The notes beneath the pieces were generated by a model. The model was not told the DNA's origin. It ran no database searches and saw only the letters and a list, made by a program, of their open reading frames with translations. From a virus, in IMG/VR virus record IMGVR_UViG_3300042197_002946, positions 86,337-150,336 of that record: 64,000 nt of DNA, one strand, 5' to 3'. The position numbers were made by a program, and so were the translations under genes. Of this stretch, positions 1 through 56,519 are shown piece after piece. Numbering within the stretch: position 1 is the first letter of the stretch; every line of letters starts with the position of its first letter.

Positions 1-2538
1 TTTACAGGATCAACCACTACTCCCAGATTTACTGATAAGATTACTAACATATATCGCTCAGCAGCGCTGGGTCAAAATCATATGTTGTTGGTCAACGCTT
101 CGGGAGTTTTAGAGGGTTATGGTGTTAATACACTAAGTCAATCTCTAGGAACCAACACCACAAATATAGTTAAAGTTGCAACAAAATATAATCATAATTT
201 AGCGATTAAAAAAGAAACAGTAGGATCTTCTACAATAGACAGGTTATATTCTTGGGGGGCCAACTTATATGGTCAGTGCGGCCAAGGAACAACATCAGCA
301 TCAATAAATTCAGTAACAGCCATAACTAGCGATAGTAATTCTTATATTGATATTGCTACCGGAGAAAATCATAGTTTAGCTGTTAGATCCAATGGTATGA
401 TGGTAGCTTGTGGGAGAAATGACTTTGGTCAATTAGGCTTAGGCAATACTAATAATCAAACGTCTTTTGTTACTGTGAGTGGCAATATATCTAGTGTTGC
501 TTGTGGGCAATCTCATTCTGCTGCTATTGCTACTGATGGTAAATTGTATACATGGGGCAATAATGGGGTTGGCCAATTAGGTCGAGACCCATCAGTCAGT
601 CCCACAGATACTAATCCAATTGCTGTAAGTGGTTCATCATGGGTCAAAGTTGTTTGTGGCCAGAATTTCACAGCAGCATTAAACAATAGCAACGAGGTAT
701 ACACATGGGGAGATAATACTGTAGGACAATTGGGTAGGAGCGCCTTGGGATCATCTGCTTATACTCCAACTAAAATTAGTGGAGTATGGAATGATATTAG
801 CGCTGGCAATTTGCATATGATAGGAATACAAACAGATGGCACTTTATGGGCTTGGGGATCTAATGTACAATCTCAAGTAGGAGATGGTACCTCTGTTAAT
901 AAAACATCTCCGGTACAGATTGGAGCATATCCTGATAATCAGTGGGAAAGAGTGTTTGCTGGAGGAAATAGTTCGGCGGCCACTAGATCAGGAGCAGTTA
1001 TTGTTATAACATCTCAACCAGCCAACATTGTTGAGTCCAATGATGGTTCTGCTTCTTTCACGATTACTGCTACTATTACTGGTGGAGGATTATTATCATA
1101 TCAGTGGCAAAGAAGCGTTGATGCTGGGCTAACGTTCTCTAATATTGCTGGAGCAACAAACTCAACACTTAGTCTTACCGGACTTAATAATAGTTTTGAT
1201 AACTATAGATATCGTTGTTTAATTACGGGTACCGAAGGTGCATATCCAGTAACATCATCTGCTGCCGTACTCATCGAAAAGAGTGCTTCAGTATACTTTA
1301 GGGGCTTCCAAGCTGCTGATGGGGCAATACCATATAGCATTGGTTCACCTTGGGTTGAGTGGAACGTTGCTAATGACTCATGGAACTATAATTCCACCTC
1401 TGTGCGTAGATCCGGGAGCGCCTCTGATGTATTTGCTAAGAATAGCGGAACAACCTTAAAACAAGTAGTAAGATGTGGCCCTTCGACAGTCGCATTCTTA
1501 TCTTCTGACGGGAGGGTTTGGGTCACAACAACTGGCAACCAATATAACATTTTAACCGCAAGCTATAGTTTCGTAGCAACTATCAACAATCCAGCCGGGG
1601 AGACTATAGTAAAACTAATTGGTAACTATGGCATTTATAGCAGTGCTAGCATATTTGGTAGGGCTTTTTTATGGGGAATAAGCGCTAGTGGTAAACTATA
1701 CGGAATTACCTCCCAATGGCCAGGATCGACTTCGGGATGGAACAGAATAGGTAATGATCTGGTAGTTACTGATGCTGCTGCTTGTCAATATAATGGAACG
1801 CATTATCCAACTGTATATGCTATTTCTGCTATTGATGGAACTTTGTGGGCATGGGGAGACAATAGGCTAATAAACAGCACAACAACGCCTTCTGCTATAC
1901 AAAATGCTACAACTCAGCCAGTTAGAGTAAGTACTGATACATGGTCAGCTGTAGCGGGTAATATTGGAGGCTTCTTTGGTATCAAGAGTGATGGTGCGGT
2001 GTATCGTATAGTAGGACAATGGGGTGGAGGAACAGTGAGCGGACGTAATGGTAGCAATACTACCTCTTTTAATAGCGGAACCCTTGGACTGACTAGCAAT
2101 ACTGTTGTGCCAGTATTAGTAGATAATAGTGTTGCTTATAGCAAGTTAGCTGCTAATAATAGTCTATTGATTGGCTATGATGTTAATAATAAATTACATA
2201 TTAATCCTAATTTTAATGTTGCAAGAGATCTGCCAGTTGGTTGGAATAATATTAGCGATATTTTATTAGGAACAAATACGGCTACCACTCAAGGAGCAGT
2301 TATATTAACAGACAATTATACCAGTAACACAAATATTGCCATGATGCTCACTATTGCAACCTTAACATCTTCCGCCACATACTACCAGTATGGTGCCAAT
2401 AATGCCAACATTTTATGGACCTCAAATACAACAACACCTTGGGGCAACGGAACAACAGCACCAGTAAATGTTAGAGCAGAATTTAAAAATGTAATTCCAG
2501 ACTTTCCAGGTTACTGGCTAGCCATAAAGGATGACTAA
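1..2538 (+). CDS. RCC1-repeat beta-propeller protein with a central Ig-like domain, probable tail/receptor-binding protein (5' truncated by the window)
   Basis: Frame 1 is open from base 1. Multiple RCC1 repeats ([34 protein letters not shown]). Ig-like segment ITSQP...SYQWQRS...YRYRC at ~1003-1275, then a second, degenerate RCC1 region. Confidence 0.8.
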
Positions 2539-5500
2539 TGAGAATAGCAGTAAATTATAATGATCTTATACAATATCCATTAACTATTTATAGAGTTGGT
2601 GGAGAATTTACACTAAGAAATGTATCTAATGGTACATTAATTACTCTACCTATAGGATACTCAGATAATTTATCTATTTCTAGTCCTATACTGGTTGGTA
2701 CCGTAGAAGACACATTTAATAATTTTACATATTCCTACGAAGATATTATTGAAAAAGCTCAATTTGAGCATCCTGGCTATACTCAATTAGTATATGCTAG
2801 CTTAGAGTTGGTAATGTTAGATGCTTACTATAAGGTTGTTGCTTATTTAACAACCAATAATACCGGAGCATATGCTCCCACACTTATAGGTCCAGGATAT
2901 CGTGCAACCATCGAATTCGGTAACTTACCACAGATAGATAGCTGTTATGGTCCTGATGACTATTGGGTAATAGGAAAAAAAGATGACAGTAGTGTTTTTA
3001 ATAATATTACGCCATATTCGGTTATAGAACCTGTTTTATTGGTTACGCCCACGCCCACTCCCAGTGCTACCCCCACACTAACGCCAACGATTACACAAAC
3101 CACAACACCTACTTTAACTGCTACTAGTACTCAGACTCCTACGCGAACTCCGGGACCTACCAGATCTCCTACAACAACACCGACAGCATCTATTACTCCA
3201 ACTCGCACTCAAACCACAACGCCCACATCTACTAGTACAGTTACTCCCACCCCAACTACTACAACTACATTAACTCAGTCCAGCACCCCGACTCTCACAC
3301 CAACGCCAACATCCACAACCACACTTACTGCAACACAAACTACCACACCAACACCGACTACCACACCCACATTAACTCCTAGTTTAACTGCTACATCTAC
3401 TCCTACTCCTAGTATTACCACTACTCACACACCCACACAAACTCGTACACCTACTGTTACTCCCACTCCAACAGCATTAGAATCTAACGTACTAGTATGG
3501 GGAGATAATTCTTATAGTCAATTAGGTATGGGGTATTTGCTCAACGATAGGTTTATTGATCCTCCACGCTTAGGAGAACAAACTAATAATAGACTAGCCA
3601 ACTATCAGAATATTTTGAATTATAGAGAAGACGGCACAGATAGTGTTGTTTATTTTAATGCAGTATCCGCGGGTTCTAATTTTAGCGTAGGCATAGATGT
3701 CAGCGGTTCTTTGCATAGCGTTGGGGTTAATGCATGGGGGCAATTAGGATTAGGTAACTTTGAAAGCAAATCAATGTTTACTCGTATCTCCGACCCTTCA
3801 CTTAATGGTGTAGTATTCAAACAAATTAGTTTAGGTAATATGCACGCCATAGCATTAGATTCTGATGGTAATGCATGGTCATGGGGTCGTAATTCCGATG
3901 GTCAATTAGGTAATCATTATTTACCAAGACCAATTAACTCTATGACTACTATTGATTCGGATATTAATTTGTATGATTTTGTAATCAGCTACGATGTAAC
4001 AGATGAGTTTTCATTAAATGACGAAGTTCTGATTGATTATTATAGCGGATCCATACATAAAACTAGTGTTGGTAGAGTATGGACATCTCCTACCTTCAGC
4101 AATAATGAAACAACGATTAGAGTACAGTGGGAAAATTATGAATCTATAGATTTCAGTATAGTCCCTACATTATTATCAAAAACCAAAGTAGATATTGATC
4201 CTGGTTTATTGGCCAACCCTACTCCTAGAAAAATATATGCTTATAAAGAATACAGATATTGCATAGATAATGATACTGTATTTTTTGCTACTCCAACACC
4301 CACACCCACCGTTAGTTACACTACAACAACCACCCCCACCATAACAGCAACGACTACTCCGTCCACAACCACGACGCTTACAGCTACTCCTACCAATACT
4401 TCCACCAATACTCTAACTCCAACTCCTACAGTTAGTCAATCTCCTTCACCGTCGGCATCTCCTGGTCAAACACCCACACCAACGGCCACGCCTACTTCTA
4501 CAACAACTTTGACAGCTACTCCTACAGCTACTTTGACTCTTAGTGCTACTCGTACACAAACCCCCACCAATAGTCCCACGCCGTCTACAACAGTCAGTGT
4601 TACTCCAACAAGCTCAGTAACTCCCACAAATACATCGACTGTTACTCCAACGATGACGGTTACTCCGACCAAGGAAGCTTTCCCTGTGTTAACAATATAT
4701 GGAGACATTAGATCTATTTTAACTAATAGCAATAAATCTACTGTCATGTTGAATGTATACGATGAAAATTCTAGTCCTGCATTGTTATATAAAGCTAAAA
4801 TTCTGGATGTTGAGTGGTTATCAAATTTTGGAATAACCAAAGTTCGTATCGATCATCCAATGATATCAACTATTGATCCCAAAAAGATGAAATATGTTTC
4901 TATTGTTCGCTTTAATAATGGATCCTCTTACGAATACGAATCTTTTGCTAGAGTACATGCCGGAGAGTCACACTCCATGGCTCTTGATACTAATGGCCGT
5001 TTGTTTGTATGCGGTAGTAACAAGTATGGGCAGCTGGGTCTTGGTTTAATTCAAGAGCTAGACGACGCTAGAGAACTACGCCTAGTGAATGGCAAACCAG
5101 TAGTTCGTATTGGATTAACTACAACAATGAAATTAGTGAATCCTCCTCCTGGACGAGGCTATTGTTATAATAGAGGATTTAAATGGAAAAAGATATCCTT
5201 GGGTCGTTTTCATACGCTAGCTTTAGATGCTTTAGGTCAATTATGGGTCTGGGGAGACAATGATTTCGGACAGCTAGGCTTGGGAGACTCTACAACACTA
5301 TTAGCCAAGGCTATTGTGGTACAGGAAAATTATCCTTCTATTGGAAGCATAGGAGAAAGAGACTTGCCAGATAGAGCTAATGTTGTTATTCCATATTCTC
5401 CATTACCATTTAAAATTTATGTATTGCAAGACAACTATTCTGATGTACAAAACCAAAGCATTGAAACAGACTATTGGTTGGATATTGCTGCAGGAGCTTA

Positions 5501-6062
5501 TCATAATCTAGCTATTAAGAAAGAATTTTCTAGTATAACATCTTACGGTTCATTATGGGCGTGGGGCGATAATACTTTTGGTCAATTAGCTAGAGTAAAT
5601 ACTTCTCCCAAGATTGTAGCTACCAACGCTAACGAAATAGATATATCTCAAGTAGATTTCGGTTTTGTTAACAACGATAATAGTCGTAACTATTGGAAGA
5701 GGGTTTATGCTGGTCGTATAACATCATTTGCTTTGAAATCAACTGATGGTAAACTATATTCTTGGGGCGAAAGTAATCTAGGTCAAACCGGTAATGTTAC
5801 ATCTAGAGCAGCTTTAGCTAGTTCTATACGTAATATTCCATCGGTTGTGAATCTGCCAAGAATACCTTTTGAATTACCCACCAGCGCTAGCGGCCCATGG
5901 GGTATTATTAATGTAAGCAATGATGTGGATCAAATAGATAATATTGGTATAGGACATTTGGCTAATCATATATTAGTGATACCAAATAGATTATTTCCCA
6001 CGCCAACACCGACGCCTAGTGTGACGGCATCGATCACGCCCACGCCGTCATCTAGTGGATAG
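2538..6062 (+). CDS. RCC1-repeat protein with mucin-like Thr/Pro-rich tracts, probable virion surface protein
   Basis: RCC1 motifs ([34 protein letters not shown]). Two long TPT-rich tracts and a TP-rich C-terminus. TAATG overlap with the upstream gene. Confidence 0.8.
3045..3473 (+). repeat. Thr/Pro-rich low-complexity coding repeat (TPTPT...)
   Basis: About 140 codons almost entirely T/P/S, with degenerate codon usage. Confidence 0.9.
4290..4670 (+). repeat. Second Thr/Pro-rich low-complexity coding repeat
   Basis: About 125 codons of T/P/S/V inserted between RCC1 repeats. Confidence 0.9.
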
Positions 6063-52848: not shown

Positions 52849-53136
52849 TTAATCTTTGTATGGAATCCAGTGTTTTCGCACAAAAACCATATTGATAAAA
52901 AACCCACAAAAGGCGCTCAAAACATTGCTGACTATTGGCTGAGTCGTATCCTGTAATGGGTTTAACCAAATACTTAACAACAGACTAATCCAGAAACTAG
53001 CACACTCATGGCACAACAAAGGAGTTCGGACGTATGCTATTTTAGCAATAAGGTTACGTAAGGGTCTACTTGCTTCGGTATCACCCCAAGCATAAGACAA
53101 TCCCAAAGAACAAAAAAGATAGATTAAAAAAATCAT
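52849..53136 (-). CDS. Small membrane protein with CxxC (DUF1360-like)
   Basis: Three hydrophobic segments; LLCHECASFW. Confidence 0.6.
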   Translation of the reverse strand: MIFLIYLFCSLGLSYAWGDTEASRPLRNLIAKIAYVRTPLLCHECASFWISLLLSIWLNPLQDTTQPIVSNVLSAFCGFFINMVFVRKHWIPYKD

Positions 53137-53375
53137 TATATAGGCTCGCAGGCAAAGCAGTACATAGTATTATCAGTCGGCGTAATGGTTGGAGTGCCCG
53201 CCGGAACCCCATATCCTGGAGAACAATAATTAGCTACAAATTCCCAAGAACTTCCACCACCACACGGACAACTACTTGGCCCATGATAAAAGTATTTGTA
53301 AATATTACTACTATTACAATCAGCTTTAGTAGTTAACATACTATAAATTGGACCATCACTATTATTATAAGTCAT
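53136..53375 (-). CDS. Cys-rich peptide A (79 aa, 6 Cys) with DGPIYSMLTTK leader motif
   Basis: Shared N-terminal motif; TAATG coupling to the CxxC membrane protein. Confidence 0.75.
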   Translation of the reverse strand: MTYNNSDGPIYSMLTTKADCNSSNIYKYFYHGPSSCPCGGGSSWEFVANYCSPGYGVPAGTPTITPTDNTMYCFACEPI

Positions 53376-53406: not shown

Positions 53407-53811
53407 CTATAAGAAATACACCACGACTCCATCATCTCGTTCTACAATGCTAAACATTCTAAACATCTTTCCTGGCAAAGTTGAGGCAAAATTCTGCCAA
53501 GATTCCTCACCTTTTGGAATAACAAACATTCGACCAGCATAATTATTGTTTTGTCTTTCTGCTTTAATTTTATCCATTTCTGTTTTTAAAGCATTAGGAT
53601 CCTTAACGTATTTATTCATTACTAAAGGATCTTTTTCTAGCTGTTCTGTAAAAAATTTGATTACTCGTCCTCGACATGTGCAGTTGGGATTATTTTTAAA
53701 TGTTACCAGATCAGCTAATATTGTTGAAAAATCATTTTGTAGTTGATTAAAAACACTGTCATCTTTAATAATAAAAGATAATGCGTCTCCTAATTGATCC
53801 ATAGAAATCAT
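53407..53811 (-). CDS. Hypothetical protein with an NPNCxC motif
   Basis: 134 aa with a GAGG RBS. Confidence 0.65.
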   Translation of the reverse strand: MISMDQLGDALSFIIKDDSVFNQLQNDFSTILADLVTFKNNPNCTCRGRVIKFFTEQLEKDPLVMNKYVKDPNALKTEMDKIKAERQNNNYAGRMFVIPKGEESWQNFASTLPGKMFRMFSIVERDDGVVVYFL

Positions 53812-53945: not shown

Positions 53946-54260
53946 TTAGCATGGAGCAGAAGGACAAGTCCCGTTACAGCACCCTGTGCGTATATTCGTT
54001 CCCCCCAGACCATAACAATAAGAACTATAATCCTCTTCTTCAGTCAAAAGGACATATGAATAGGTTTCTGGGGTACACGCAAAATATTTTCCGTCCTCGC
54101 GACTAAAATCTGCTCCAGTGTTTATGTACCCTGGCGGACAAGGATAATCAGCAAACCATTCAACTAAATATATAAAATTAGATGCGGAACTAGCAAGAAA
54201 AATATTAATTTTAGGCATTCCTGATTTTGAATAATTAACAACCACATACCACTGTTGCAT
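53946..54260 (-). CDS. Cys-rich peptide B (104 aa, 7 Cys), leaderless paralogue
   Basis: FADYPCPPGY...YFACTP matches FVANYCSPGY...YCFACEP of peptide A. Confidence 0.65.
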   Translation of the reverse strand: MQQWYVVVNYSKSGMPKINIFLASSASNFIYLVEWFADYPCPPGYINTGADFSREDGKYFACTPETYSYVLLTEEEDYSSYCYGLGGTNIRTGCCNGTCPSAPC

Positions 54261-54272
54261 TCCCCCCGCCCG

Positions 54273-54452
54273 CTATTGGGGGCAGGCGCAGCAATACTCT
54301 GCGGCAAGATGATCCATGGCCTCGCTGACCCAAAAATTATAGCACTGTTGGTACGACGCGAAGGCCTGCGGCGCATTCGGATCCGTTGGCCAGTAAGAGC
54401 AGGAATACTGGCACTTCGCATCCAAATTACTAAAAATTGGTTCATCACTCAT
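54273..54452 (-). CDS. Cys-rich peptide C (59 aa, 6 Cys), not in the ORF track: MSDEPIFSNLDAKCQYSCSYWPTDPNAPQAFASYQQCYNFWVSEAMDHLAAEYCCACPQ
   Basis: Translated by hand. GGAGG RBS 6 nt before the ATG; shares the DEPIFSxLxxK motif and the C-terminal YCxAC. Confidence 0.8.
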   Translation of the reverse strand: MSDEPIFSNLDAKCQYSCSYWPTDPNAPQAFASYQQCYNFWVSEAMDHLAAEYCCACPQ

Positions 54453-54476
54453 AAAATACCTCCATTATATGTACGT

Positions 54477-54517
54477 AATAATATTTACTAAATTTACCAA
54501 ATAATATTTTCACTAAA
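54477..54517. promoter_or_regulatory. Imperfect direct repeat in the divergent intergenic region, candidate operator
   Basis: AATAATATTTACTAAA (54477-54492) and AATAATATTTTCACTAAA (54500-54517). Confidence 0.4.
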
Positions 54518-54612
54518 CATTTATCCTAAACTCAGAATAAATAAAAATAATTTCTCAGTATAATCGTATAACAATGTCAGCAATTGAGACTGACTAACCC
54601 ACGGATGAAAAC

Positions 54613-54876
54613 ATGAAAACCATCACTTGTAAAGAACTGGCTAAGGGTCTTGGCTGCAACTACGTTATCGCCGCCGGAATCATGAACCTACTCGTCAAAA
54701 CAGGACAAGCAAAAGTCGTAGCCAAAGTTTTTCACGAAAGCGGACGCGGAAAGCCAACTAGAATCTATATGCTCCCCAAACAAGTCAAACTCAACATTCC
54801 CACCACTAAACCCAGCCCAGTCTATAAACTCGTAGGAAATAAACTCATCCAAGCAAAATACCGAAAAACAGCCTAA
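54613..54876 (+). CDS. Winged-helix DNA-binding protein
   Basis: TCKELAKGLG HTH, LVKTG, wing GRGKPTRIY; has its own terminator. Confidence 0.7.
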   Translation: MKTITCKELAKGLGCNYVIAAGIMNLLVKTGQAKVVAKVFHESGRGKPTRIYMLPKQVKLNIPTTKPSPVYKLVGNKLIQAKYRKTA

Positions 54877-54887
54877 ATAACCCAAAC

Positions 54888-54915
54888 CTCTCCCTATCTG
54901 TAGGGAGAGTTTTTT
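54888..54915 (+). terminator. Rho-independent terminator after the wHTH gene
   Basis: CTCTCCCTA-TCTG-TAGGGAGAG-TTTTTT, a perfect 9-bp stem. Confidence 0.85.
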
Positions 54916-55324
54916 ATACAGGAGTAAAAGTCAAACTTATACTCTGACTACCGCCGCCACAAGCAGAAATATTATTATTAGAACAGTCTGCTGAATAGCC
55001 CCATGTTTGCCAGCCACTTGAAGGAGGTGGAGAGTCTGGAGAACCAGAAACAAATGCTGCTGGGCCATATCCGCCCCAAAAAAACCATCCACTGATCAAA
55101 GGATAGATGCCACAATTACAAGGCCAATCTGTGAGATAAATAAAATAATAGTCTCCATAATCATTATCGCACCAACTCCCCCCAGGACAATAGCCATATG
55201 TATTATAAGTTAGATTGTTTGGATTGGTACTTTGAAGTTGATTCCAACCACTAGGAATCCCAGTCGCCACAAATCCATTAGGATATTTCCCACTCAAAAC
55301 GCTAAAAATTGGTTCGTTATTCAT
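54914..55324 (-). CDS. Cys-rich peptide D (136 aa, 6 Cys) with NEPIFSVLSGK leader motif
   Basis: Shared motif; G/S/W/Y-rich; start overlaps the end of the adenylating-enzyme gene by 8 nt. Confidence 0.75.
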   Translation of the reverse strand: MNNEPIFSVLSGKYPNGFVATGIPSGWNQLQSTNPNNLTYNTYGYCPGGSWCDNDYGDYYFIYLTDWPCNCGIYPLISGWFFWGGYGPAAFVSGSPDSPPPSSGWQTWGYSADCSNNNISACGGGSQSISLTFTPV

Positions 55325-56519
55325 AAAAATTTATCTTATAATCTTGTACAATATGTTGTAAAGTCTGTTTTTCATCATCACTCAGCTTGTCTTTTATATA
55401 GATATTGGCACTCAAATTTTCAAACTGAACTTGGTCAATTTTACCTTTATACTCTAATACACCTATTTGTTTTTTTATTTCAGTTAGTTTTGTTGGCCCT
55501 TTTAGCGCAAATGGGCGATTTGCTAACATTTTGAACGGTCTATAATATCTTCCACATTCACACAATTTATAGTTGTTTTCTATCTCACATAGATCTCCGT
55601 TCCAATAGTTGATAAATGGAGCGCTCATATTGAAATAGTCTGTACTAATCATTTTATTATCTGGTCCTTGAGTTACCCAGCTTAAATTATCTAATAAATG
55701 ATATGTATGATATTTACATGTAAAGAATGTTGCTCCTCCATCCCAACACCTCATGTGATCACAAACATAATTAGCATATCCTCCATCCAGCATAATCTGT
55801 CGATCAGACTGTCTCATAAACTCACCAGTTTGACTAAATAAATAGCCTATTTTCATTTGTATATTATGTTTAACTAAATAATGAGATAAAAAACTCATAA
55901 TAGGACCAGTGATCATAACAATATCAAACGGCACCAAATCCCGTATATGTAACAATAATTTTTCTATCCATTGACTAGGATTTTCCATGTAATCATCAAA
56001 TCTCACAAAATATCTGGTACTATCTATACTTTTATGAGTATGTAGAGTGTATGGAGATGGTTCTTTTTGTTCATATATAAAATCTACATGATGTGGGTTA
56101 TATGCTAATTTTTTTAATATCAGTATGCGAGGATTCTTTTTTGTAATACCAAATTCGTCTAAGATCATGCCATAATGACACTCATCCTCTAGGAAATCTA
56201 TATGAGGTCTATAAACACCATAACTGAACGGCTCCCCAGAAGAGCTACCACTTGTATGGAAAAGTTGATTGTCTCTTTTTAAAGACTCTACAAACCATAG
56301 CTCTTTTTTCAGATTAGTTCTACTATACATATTTTGTATACTACTATAAACAGGGCTATGGATAGTAGCATAATTTGTTATATTGTGTATTAATTTATTG
56401 GCTATCTGTTTAATAATATCTGGATGATAGAATAATACTTTATTACATATTGCATAATATTGTGGTATTAGGTCGGGGCCGGTGTTGGGTAAAGATAAAA
56501 ATTGAGTAATTTCATTCAT
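55317..56519 (-). CDS. Adenylate-forming enzyme, PaaK/CapK (phenylacetate-CoA ligase-like) family
   Basis: TSGSSSG P-loop; C..H.YH; STD..N...PFINY..GD...CECGR. Confidence 0.8.
   Translation of the reverse strand: MNEITQFLSLPNTGPDLIPQYYAICNKVLFYHPDIIKQIANKLIHNITNYATIHSPVYSSIQNMYSRTNLKKELWFVESLKRDNQLFHTSGSSSGEPFSYGVYRPHIDFLEDECHYGMILDEFGITKKNPRILILKKLAYNPHHVDFIYEQKEPSPYTLHTHKSIDSTRYFVRFDDYMENPSQWIEKLLLHIRDLVPFDIVMITGPIMSFLSHYLVKHNIQMKIGYLFSQTGEFMRQSDRQIMLDGGYANYVCDHMRCWDGGATFFTCKYHTYHLLDNLSWVTQGPDNKMISTDYFNMSAPFINYWNGDLCEIENNYKLCECGRYYRPFKMLANRPFALKGPTKLTEIKKQIGVLEYKGKIDQVQFENLSANIYIKDKLSDDEKQTLQHIVQDYKINFYE

Follow-up and report, generated by a model that had tools for sequence, protein, structure and literature searches.

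pepC, an uncalled member of a ligase-coupled family of tagged phage proteins, and the possible lateral origin of its GC-rich body

The window analysed here makes up the final 64 kb of a 150,336-bp uncultured-virus record (IMGVR_UViG_3300042197_002946; GC 36.9%, CheckV completeness 100%), and our subject is pepC, an open reading frame (ORF) of 59 amino acids (aa) on its minus strand. pepC belongs to an undescribed, ligase-coupled family of tagged phage proteins that is absent from 50,697 GenBank phage records and from Pfam, NCBIfam and PHROGs. Its short N-terminal tag is written in AT-rich codons and its cysteine-rich body in GC-rich ones. We give about an even chance to the reading that pepC is chimeric, a native tag having been joined to a body of lateral origin within tag DNA that is conserved at the nucleotide level. 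Such an event looks like ordinary short-homology phage mosaicism, i.e. homologous allele replacement, and not like the product of an active diversification machine. The argument turns on the following features, given in window positions.

54273-54452, minus strand: pepC, a 59-aa uncalled ORF for a tagged six-Cys mini-protein (stop codon 54273-54275; from the ORF list, the sequence and the homologue P0001).
54459-54463, minus strand: GGAGG ribosome-binding site (RBS), 6 nt upstream of the pepC ATG (read from the sequence).
54414-54452, minus strand: pepC codons 1-13, the N-terminal tag M-S-DEPIFSNLDAK in AT-rich codons (GC content at third codon positions, GC3, 0.11-0.18; consensus of 28 family members).
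54430-54443, minus strand: 14-nt block GAACCAATTTTTAG, pepC codons 4-8, a candidate crossover site, identical in the paralogue pepD (55302-55315).
54249-54423, no strand: GC-rich island comprising pepC codons ~10-59, a 12-nt spacer and the first codons of pepB (maximum-likelihood segmentation).

The initial annotation of this DNA had pointed to an unannotated 59-aa peptide behind a GGAGG site, with 94 G or C residues in the 160 nt of 54261-54420 (58.75%) against 16 in the 60 nt of 54421-54480 (26.7%). Both counts are reproduced exactly, and the ORF with its RBS is likewise passed over by the gene calls of other assemblies. Positions 54261-54420 are the GC-richest 160-nt stretch of the whole window (mean 0.353, standard deviation (sd) 0.055; ~4.3 sd above the mean). 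Maximum-likelihood segmentation gives the island a GC content of 0.58 vs 0.32 in the flanks, with support at 54236-54265 for the left boundary and at 54391-54427 for the right one.

The excess lies in codon choice. The pepC body has a GC3 of 0.68-0.69 vs a mean of 0.28 (sd 0.065) in the 99 long ORFs of the phage, where a value of 0.69 is reached by only 0.036% of 49-codon windows. GC at codon positions 1, 2 and 3 of pepC is 0.49, 0.51 and 0.69, consistent with the pepC frame. From its amino acids and genome-typical codons, the body is expected to have a GC content of 0.434 (sd 0.021), whereas 0.565 is observed, and the maximum of 100,000 codon simulations is 0.529 (P < 1e-5). Amino-acid composition with genome-typical GC3, which had been offered at the outset as part of what would refute the proposed cassette exchange, is thus ruled out as the source of the excess. 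The neighbouring genes pepA, pepB and pepD have GC3 values of 0.25-0.28 and the GC content that the composition-only expectation predicts.

Within pepC, GC3 jumps from 0.11 to 0.68 past codon 9 (support 7-12), Lys13 (54414) being the last residue of the tag. The change falls inside or at the end of the conserved motif, in support of the early remark that composition changes at its end. A generic 5' effect does not explain the AT-rich start: no 5' dip is seen in 45 untagged, GC3-rich genes from this phage and its relatives (GC3 0.56 in codons 2-10 vs 0.55 in the rest; minimum 2/9); codons 2-10 of pepC, with 1/9, fall below every one of these controls. The tag codons are compositionally neutral or native, and the codon usage of the core leans towards the GC3-rich minority class of the genome (log-likelihood ratio +11.5), above all 938 bulk windows.

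A compositional mosaic is also found in pepA, whose GC3 rises from 0.13 over codons 1-55 to 0.54 over the remaining codons, 56-79 (log-likelihood ratio 7.2). The last Cys motif of pepA uses the codons found in pepC (TGC..GCC TGC), and its earlier Cys codons are all TGT. This codon pattern suggests that a C-terminal segment may have been exchanged between bodies.

pepC is most probably a real, previously uncalled gene, judging from its RBS, its family tag, the codon-position GC pattern and the alignment with a homologue. This protein, P0001 (68 aa), is encoded at L036/L037 in another uncultured phage (L numbers denote phage loci) and is the sole homologue found. The alignment with pepC (BLASTP E 2e-8) spans the full length and keeps the six Cys in register throughout, and the DPNAP, CxNF and CCxC motifs are common to both. 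The six Cys of pepC fall within a body of 46 residues, which is probably disulfide-bonded. A search of the ESM Atlas with pepC gave scores <0.9 and no lead. Three other assemblies contain an identical 8.4 kb including pepC, although the ORF is absent from their gene calls; therefore the island is not an assembly artefact, and a chimeric contig is unlikely.

The tag of pepC conforms to the motif x-[EG/DN]-P-[IV]-[FY]-S-x-L-x-x-K, which is always located at the extreme N-terminus. Among 28 family members the tag Lys is present in all, Ser is encoded by AGY in all and Pro by CCA in 19 of 26, and the DNA shares the core CCAATTTWTAG. Even a phage of ~50% GC has this core almost unchanged, and the 14-nt block GAACCAATTTTTAG is nearly invariant in the tags of other phages; in pepC the block is immediately followed, on its 3' side, by the GC3 change point. 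The pepD tag matches L059 over 27 nt at 96%. The N-terminus of pepB is ruled out as a decayed true tag, as read from the sequence, by its TCA codon for Ser vs AGY in 28/28 true tags. The tag strings were not found in the literature, and neither pepC nor the neighbouring ligase has a match among the GenBank phage records.

The proteins behind this tag are strikingly diverse, ranging from 59 to at least 369 aa. In L036/L037, six tagged genes stand in a short run: the 68-aa six-Cys gene, a 165-aa pepD-like gene, three LamG genes (236-369 aa) and a 284-aa gene. L035, from a phage of ~50% GC, has several tagged peptides with six to ten Cys, including DEPIFS-tagged six-Cys ones, and tagged Cys-rich proteins occur also in L002, L009, L011, L040, L042, L058 and L059. 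All-against-all BLASTP separates 29 bodies into 24 unlinked groups. Unrelated bodies thus follow a nucleotide-conserved tag in at least four phage backbones, which have no other detected similarity or differ in their local genes, one of them at ~50% GC. The LamG domains of tagged proteins are similar to LamG domains in structural proteins of the phage virion and baseplate. Looser variants of the tag ([IV]-[FY]-[SAV]-x-L-x-x-K) are found on proteins of 180-2198 aa. A variant tag also starts the giant proteins (811-2198 aa, 66-329 Cys) that lie right after ligase homologues in L023 (9266-15862), L024, L026, L018 (9210-14060) and L017 (9175-11610). Of the variant-tag proteins, one contains 16 Stig1-like repeats and 329 Cys, and PKD and DUF285 domains are present in another. 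The smallest members of the tagged family are missed by gene callers.

If pepC is a chimera, its promoter, RBS and first ~9 codons would be native AT-rich DNA, and the remainder, to ~10-35 nt past the stop codon, would carry a foreign GC-rich codon signature. We infer that a phage whose codon usage is GC-richer supplied, from one of its tagged genes, a homologous body that replaced the resident one. A crossover would then be located in the tag-coding DNA, which is the sole sequence common to all family members.

The comparison of bodies between phages agrees with such a history. The pepC-type body has a GC3 of 0.67 here vs 0.27 in L036, both phages being AT-rich. The 277/312/284-aa body type shows values of 0.59, 0.50 and 0.26 in different AT-rich phages, and the LamG body type 0.57, 0.47 and 0.30. 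That one body type differs in GC3 across phages fits transfer followed by gradual loss of the codon signature, and not codon selection by gene type. In L036:1200-3149 (= L037:7186-9135), two tagged LamG genes have GC3 values of 0.47 and 0.57 on a background of 0.27-0.32, and an adjoining third LamG paralogue has 0.30. Over 20 kb, L037 and the present genome have only the tag in common by tblastx, yet both carry a pepD-like gene followed by a pepC-like one. A junction like that of pepC is found in the 312-aa gene of L040, where GC3 rises from 0.06 to 0.50 past codon 18, the tag Lys being residue 16 (log-likelihood ratio 7.0). Donors are conceivable among phages of ~50% GC, where six-Cys peptides with a DEPIFS tag are encoded.

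Several observations weigh against the chimeric origin. The log-likelihood ratio of the change point is modest (5.4), and the exact codon of the junction cannot be read from codons 10-13 alone. Neither a donor nor a closer relative of the core was retrieved from IMG/VR (protein and profile searches), metagenome contigs, GTDB genomes, 5.8 billion protein clusters, 1.84 billion representatives (full HMMER search) or GenBank phages (DNA and protein searches). The three other assemblies are identical, and no population variation was seen. The ligase-tag chemistry considered below is wholly conjectural, and the AlphaFold2 (AF2) model of pepC is of low confidence (predicted local distance difference test (pLDDT) score 65). 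Furthermore, homologues in L011 and L040 are both GC3-rich at only 50% amino-acid identity, and the phage's own GC3-rich class, at 1-9 kb of the genome, stays GC3-rich in relatives at 70-74% nt identity. In the donor searches, a single match in GTDB was rejected as a spurious 15-residue motif in a Phycisphaeraceae protein, and a degenerate pattern of the tag DNA returned only L035/L049 and L036 from IMG/VR and metagenome contigs.

That GC3-rich class lies outside the window (G000:C1:1-9100; locus L046) and is a block of small genes with GC3 0.43-0.66 vs 0.27 in the bulk; an intergenic element of 60-90 nt, present in at least nine copies, separates these genes. L002 and L011 have retained the block together with its high GC3, and the class stays GC3-rich also in L058. 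The phage therefore carries two long-lived codon classes, and since the richer one persists in such relatives, high GC3 can last without recent transfer.

This persistence is the strength of another history, in which selection acted in place: pepC, like these small genes and the neighbouring HTH gene described below, would belong to the GC3-rich expression class of the phage, with host-adapted GC-ending codons, and the tag would have stayed AT-rich through constraint on its nucleotides. The core codons indeed fit that class, their log-likelihood ratio being within its range, and tag DNA is strongly conserved at synonymous sites. pepC also has an AT-rich upstream region of its own; this region lies beside a regulator gene and contains two direct repeats 14-57 nt before the ATG. 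However, the orthologous body in L036 stands at background GC3, and other body types vary between phages too. GC-richer tagged genes elsewhere usually have a tag GC3 like that of the body (0.44-0.57), not 0.1. Selection would have had to make ~20 synonymous changes in pepC while paralogues 100-900 nt away stayed at 0.25-0.28, and no tRNA genes that might split codon classes were found in the phage. We regard selection in place as unlikely, if still a serious candidate.

The remaining histories involve the neighbours of pepC. It sits in a run of minus-strand genes in which a helix-turn-helix (HTH) gene is the lone plus-strand member. Upstream, the order is a glycosyltransferase (GT)-like gene (425 aa), the ligase gene (400 aa), pepD (136 aa), the HTH gene (87 aa, plus strand) and pepC itself (59 aa); downstream follow pepB (104 aa), p134, pepA (79 aa), p95, and genes for dCMP deaminase and class II ribonucleotide reductase. 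pepC is thus located in a module of the form ligase - tagged gene(s) - p134 - p95.

55317-56519, minus strand: PaaK/CapK-type adenylate-forming ligase, 400 aa (fold model, Foldseek, profile match).
54914-55324, minus strand: pepD, 136-aa tagged paralogue (NEPIFSVLSGK), GC3 0.27, with an 8-nt overlap with the ligase gene.
54888-54909, no strand: hairpin serving as a bidirectional terminator, where the HTH cassette ends, ahead of pepD.
54516-54877, plus strand: HTH cassette, with a promoter, a stem-loop element and the 87-aa HTH gene (54613-54876, GC3 0.46), between pepD and pepC.
53946-54260, minus strand: pepB, 104-aa Cys-rich protein without tag, starting 12 nt past the pepC stop.
53407-53811, minus strand: p134, conserved module partner with an NPNC[ST]C motif (tblastn).
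53136-53375, minus strand: pepA, 79-aa tagged paralogue (DGPIYSMLTTK).
52849-53136, minus strand: p95, small membrane protein with a CHEC motif, the best-conserved module partner (tblastn).

The HTH cassette shares 86% nt identity over its 362 nt with L058 (L058:5929-6277), and otherwise L058 has in common with this genome only tag-coding DNA and one weak tblastx match. Its upstream ~97 nt consist of a promoter and a stem-loop, and in L058 an 80-nt upstream element recurs at at least five intergenic sites. HTH homologues P0002-P0004 lie in other contexts. The cassette is a proven lateral acquisition, a mobile regulatory cassette like the promoter early stem-loop (PeSL) elements discussed below; therefore the locus accepts foreign DNA. 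The region upstream of pepC is unique in the genome, and no repeated promoter/stem-loop element flanks pepC.

It could be supposed, accordingly, that the whole of pepC, its tag as well and maybe the HTH cassette along with it, came from a GC-richer phage without any crossover in the tag, and that tag and upstream region seem native merely because they are AT-rich and conserved everywhere. The near-invariance of the tag DNA core in the ~50% GC phage fits this supposition, as do the import of the adjoining cassette, with its GC3 of 0.46, and the presence of tagged Cys-rich genes near the HTH homologues of other phages. However, the homology with L058 stops at 54516 and excludes pepC, so that arrival of the HTH gene together with the pepC core is rejected. 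The tagged genes of L058 and L059 have a GC3 of 0.21-0.35, not 0.69; tags in GC-rich contexts reach the body-like values cited above, which the start of pepC does not approach; and the order of a pepD-like gene followed by a pepC-like one also exists in L036/L037, without the HTH gene. Import of the whole gene is, in our estimation, quite unlikely.

At 54466-54509, 14-57 nt upstream of the pepC start, two 21-nt direct repeats lie 23 nt apart with an overlapping palindrome. They fall in the upstream region common to pepC and the divergent HTH gene and are candidate operator sites; therefore pepC may be under the control of the imported HTH protein.

The initial annotation went further and proposed that cores are swapped in by recombination at or near a leader, or were recently acquired from a higher-GC donor, as a cassette-type diversification mechanism. 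The part concerning exchange at the tag finds some favour in the unrelated bodies behind one tag, the second junction in L040 and the import of the HTH cassette, and it suffers from the lack of a donor in any collection. That the core is new to the locus does not agree with P0001, which has ordinary GC3 (0.27) and occupies the same place after the pepD-like 165-aa gene in L036/L037. The genome contains no second copy of the island or core, no match to a reverse transcriptase (RVT_1), and nothing convincing in the way of inverted or direct repeats flanking the island, and the three other assemblies hold no alternative cores. With no donor, silent cassette, reverse transcriptase or alternative core, a dedicated mechanism is unsupported. 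We therefore return to the chimera formed by ordinary recombination in the tag as the reading we prefer, whereby, since a compositional signal alone is no proof of transfer, pepC serves mainly as supporting evidence for the evolution of the larger module.

The terms leader and core evoke precursors of ribosomally synthesized and post-translationally modified peptides (RiPPs), such as prochlorosins and cyanobactins, in which a leader would guide maturation enzymes while a dedicated cassette mechanism diversifies the cores. There is a likeness: short precursors with a conserved N-terminus and a hypervariable Cys-rich remainder, several paralogues per locus, and an adjoining ATP-dependent enzyme, here the ligase, together with the GT-like gene. 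The terms are nevertheless misleading because the tag, only ~11 residues long (11-13 in pepC), also heads large multidomain proteins, namely LamG proteins of 236-369 aa and, in its variants, Stig1, PKD or DUF285 proteins of 811-2198 aa. Among the neighbours, Pfam, NCBIfam and PHROGs matched no RiPP maturase or other RiPP enzyme, RiPP recognition element (RRE), leader peptidase or other protease, or exporter. Given also the missing cassettes, flanking repeats, reverse transcriptase and alternative cores, a RiPP-like precursor is very improbable. That pepC is only a chance ORF over a GC-rich non-coding element, be it a structured RNA or another DNA site, or part of an assembly chimera, can scarcely be credited: the ORF is short and passed over by gene callers, and several frames are open in this GC-rich DNA (overlapping ORFs of 94 and 78 aa), but no tRNA or Rfam family matches, the folding z-scores of -1.55 and -0.36 are not significant for a structured RNA, and the RBS, tag, aligned Cys, codon-position pattern and three further assemblies all speak for a gene.

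The 400-aa neighbour has no Pfam match. Its AF2 model (pLDDT 85) matches 4r1m (BT_0428), ClxA (9s45) and PaaK1 (2y27) in Foldseek with E values of 1e-14 to 1e-12; a profile match to ClxA (9s3l) and an Atlas structure match with a TM score of 0.73 were also obtained, and the sequence contains a P-loop-like motif, TSGSSSGEP. By its modelled fold, the protein is established as a PaaK-family AMP ligase. Homologues are present at 33 phage loci, and inspection of ORF lists places a tagged Cys-rich gene directly downstream of the ligase, often overlapping it, at ~14 of 26 distinct loci. p134 and p95 have no Pfam, NCBIfam or PHROG match and co-occur with the ligase: tblastn finds p134 in 15 loci at 44-62% identity and p95 in 13 loci at 56-77%, the latter being better conserved than the ligase. 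The partners are present also in L002, L006, L009, L010, L011, L023, L024 and L026.

Judging from this gene coupling only, the tag may serve, rather than as a cleavable RiPP leader, as a recognition handle for the co-encoded ligase, whose chemistry could conceivably be amide formation at the invariant Lys or the mounting of the protein. We consider it possible, while leaning against it, that the tag has two roles: as protein, a handle by which the PaaK-type ligase modifies or mounts diverse binding-type proteins, and as DNA, an in-frame recombination joint at which bodies are exchanged across phage lineages and GC contents, pepC being a fresh chimera before codon drift. If pepC is indeed a chimera joined at the tag, it would be a clean natural case of in-frame module exchange at a shared coding tag, and phages would have a route for re-equipping the tag-and-ligase module with binding or display domains from distant phages. 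Subject to validation, the tag with its invariant Lys and dedicated ligase might be developed into a tool for tagging proteins.

Some further observations concern the surroundings. pepB has a weak Pfam match to the disulphide subdomain of PBCV-1 P7, and one gene caller starts it 14 codons later. Between the stop of pepC and the start of pepB, the spacer (54262-54272) is an unusual G-run, CGGGCGGGGGGA, which can pair with a C-run at the end of pepC; such pairing may couple or gate the translation of pepB. At the other end of the window, positions 82-6062 encode two large proteins (818 and 1174 aa) composed mostly of RCC1-like repeats, and the proteins that follow them (688-2241 aa) have no Pfam match. 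Presumably, the RCC1-like proteins and their followers are virion or fibre proteins.

Among known systems, diversity-generating retroelements place their variable region at the 3' end of the target gene and use a reverse transcriptase and a template repeat of ~90% identity. pepC resembles them in that a stretch of odd composition, 150-190 nt long, forms the 3' end of a small phage gene for a binding-type protein. The genome has neither reverse transcriptase nor template repeat, however, and with no second copy of the core, retroelement and silent cassettes are both ruled out. The PaaK-family AMP ligases PaaK1/2, BT_0428, ClxA, NatL2 and AjiA1 form amides or esters. The neighbouring 400-aa protein has the same fold and a P-loop-like motif, which is the sole biochemical clue to the role of the tag, although it is only 9-17% identical to them in sequence. 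To our knowledge, no PaaK-family member acts on a protein tag.

By analogy, the closest known counterparts of pepC are the T4 internal proteins with a capsid targeting sequence (CTS) and PeSL-mediated shuffling. T4 internal proteins are highly diverse apart from the shared CTS (PMC3012670), and their genes vary between related phages (PMC4122927). In them, as in the tagged family, a short conserved N-terminal sequence heads diverse small phage proteins. The tag of pepC is unrelated to the CTS, however, lacks the [LI]xE site of the prohead protease and ends in Lys. A Pfam search for the prohead protease gave no S78 match and no S77 match, though the S77 control search detected none in any genome. 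Moreover, the tagged bodies are Cys-rich, LamG or Stig1-like and thus of extracellular type, not small internal head proteins, and the conserved neighbour of the tagged family is a PaaK-type ligase.

PeSL shuffling operates in the hyperplastic regions of T4-type phages (Arbiol et al. 2010, PMC2839356; Comeau et al. 2014, PMC4122927), where short conserved sequences common to many small non-essential genes act as recombination joints at which modules are swapped between phages (PMC2839356). The HTH cassette beside pepC is of this type, with its promoter and stem-loop element repeated in L058. The sequence shared by pepC differs in kind: the PeSL is an intergenic promoter-terminator element, whereas the tag is coding. 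Since the joint proposed for pepC is a coding one, the junction would lie inside the ORF and give rise to an in-frame chimeric protein.

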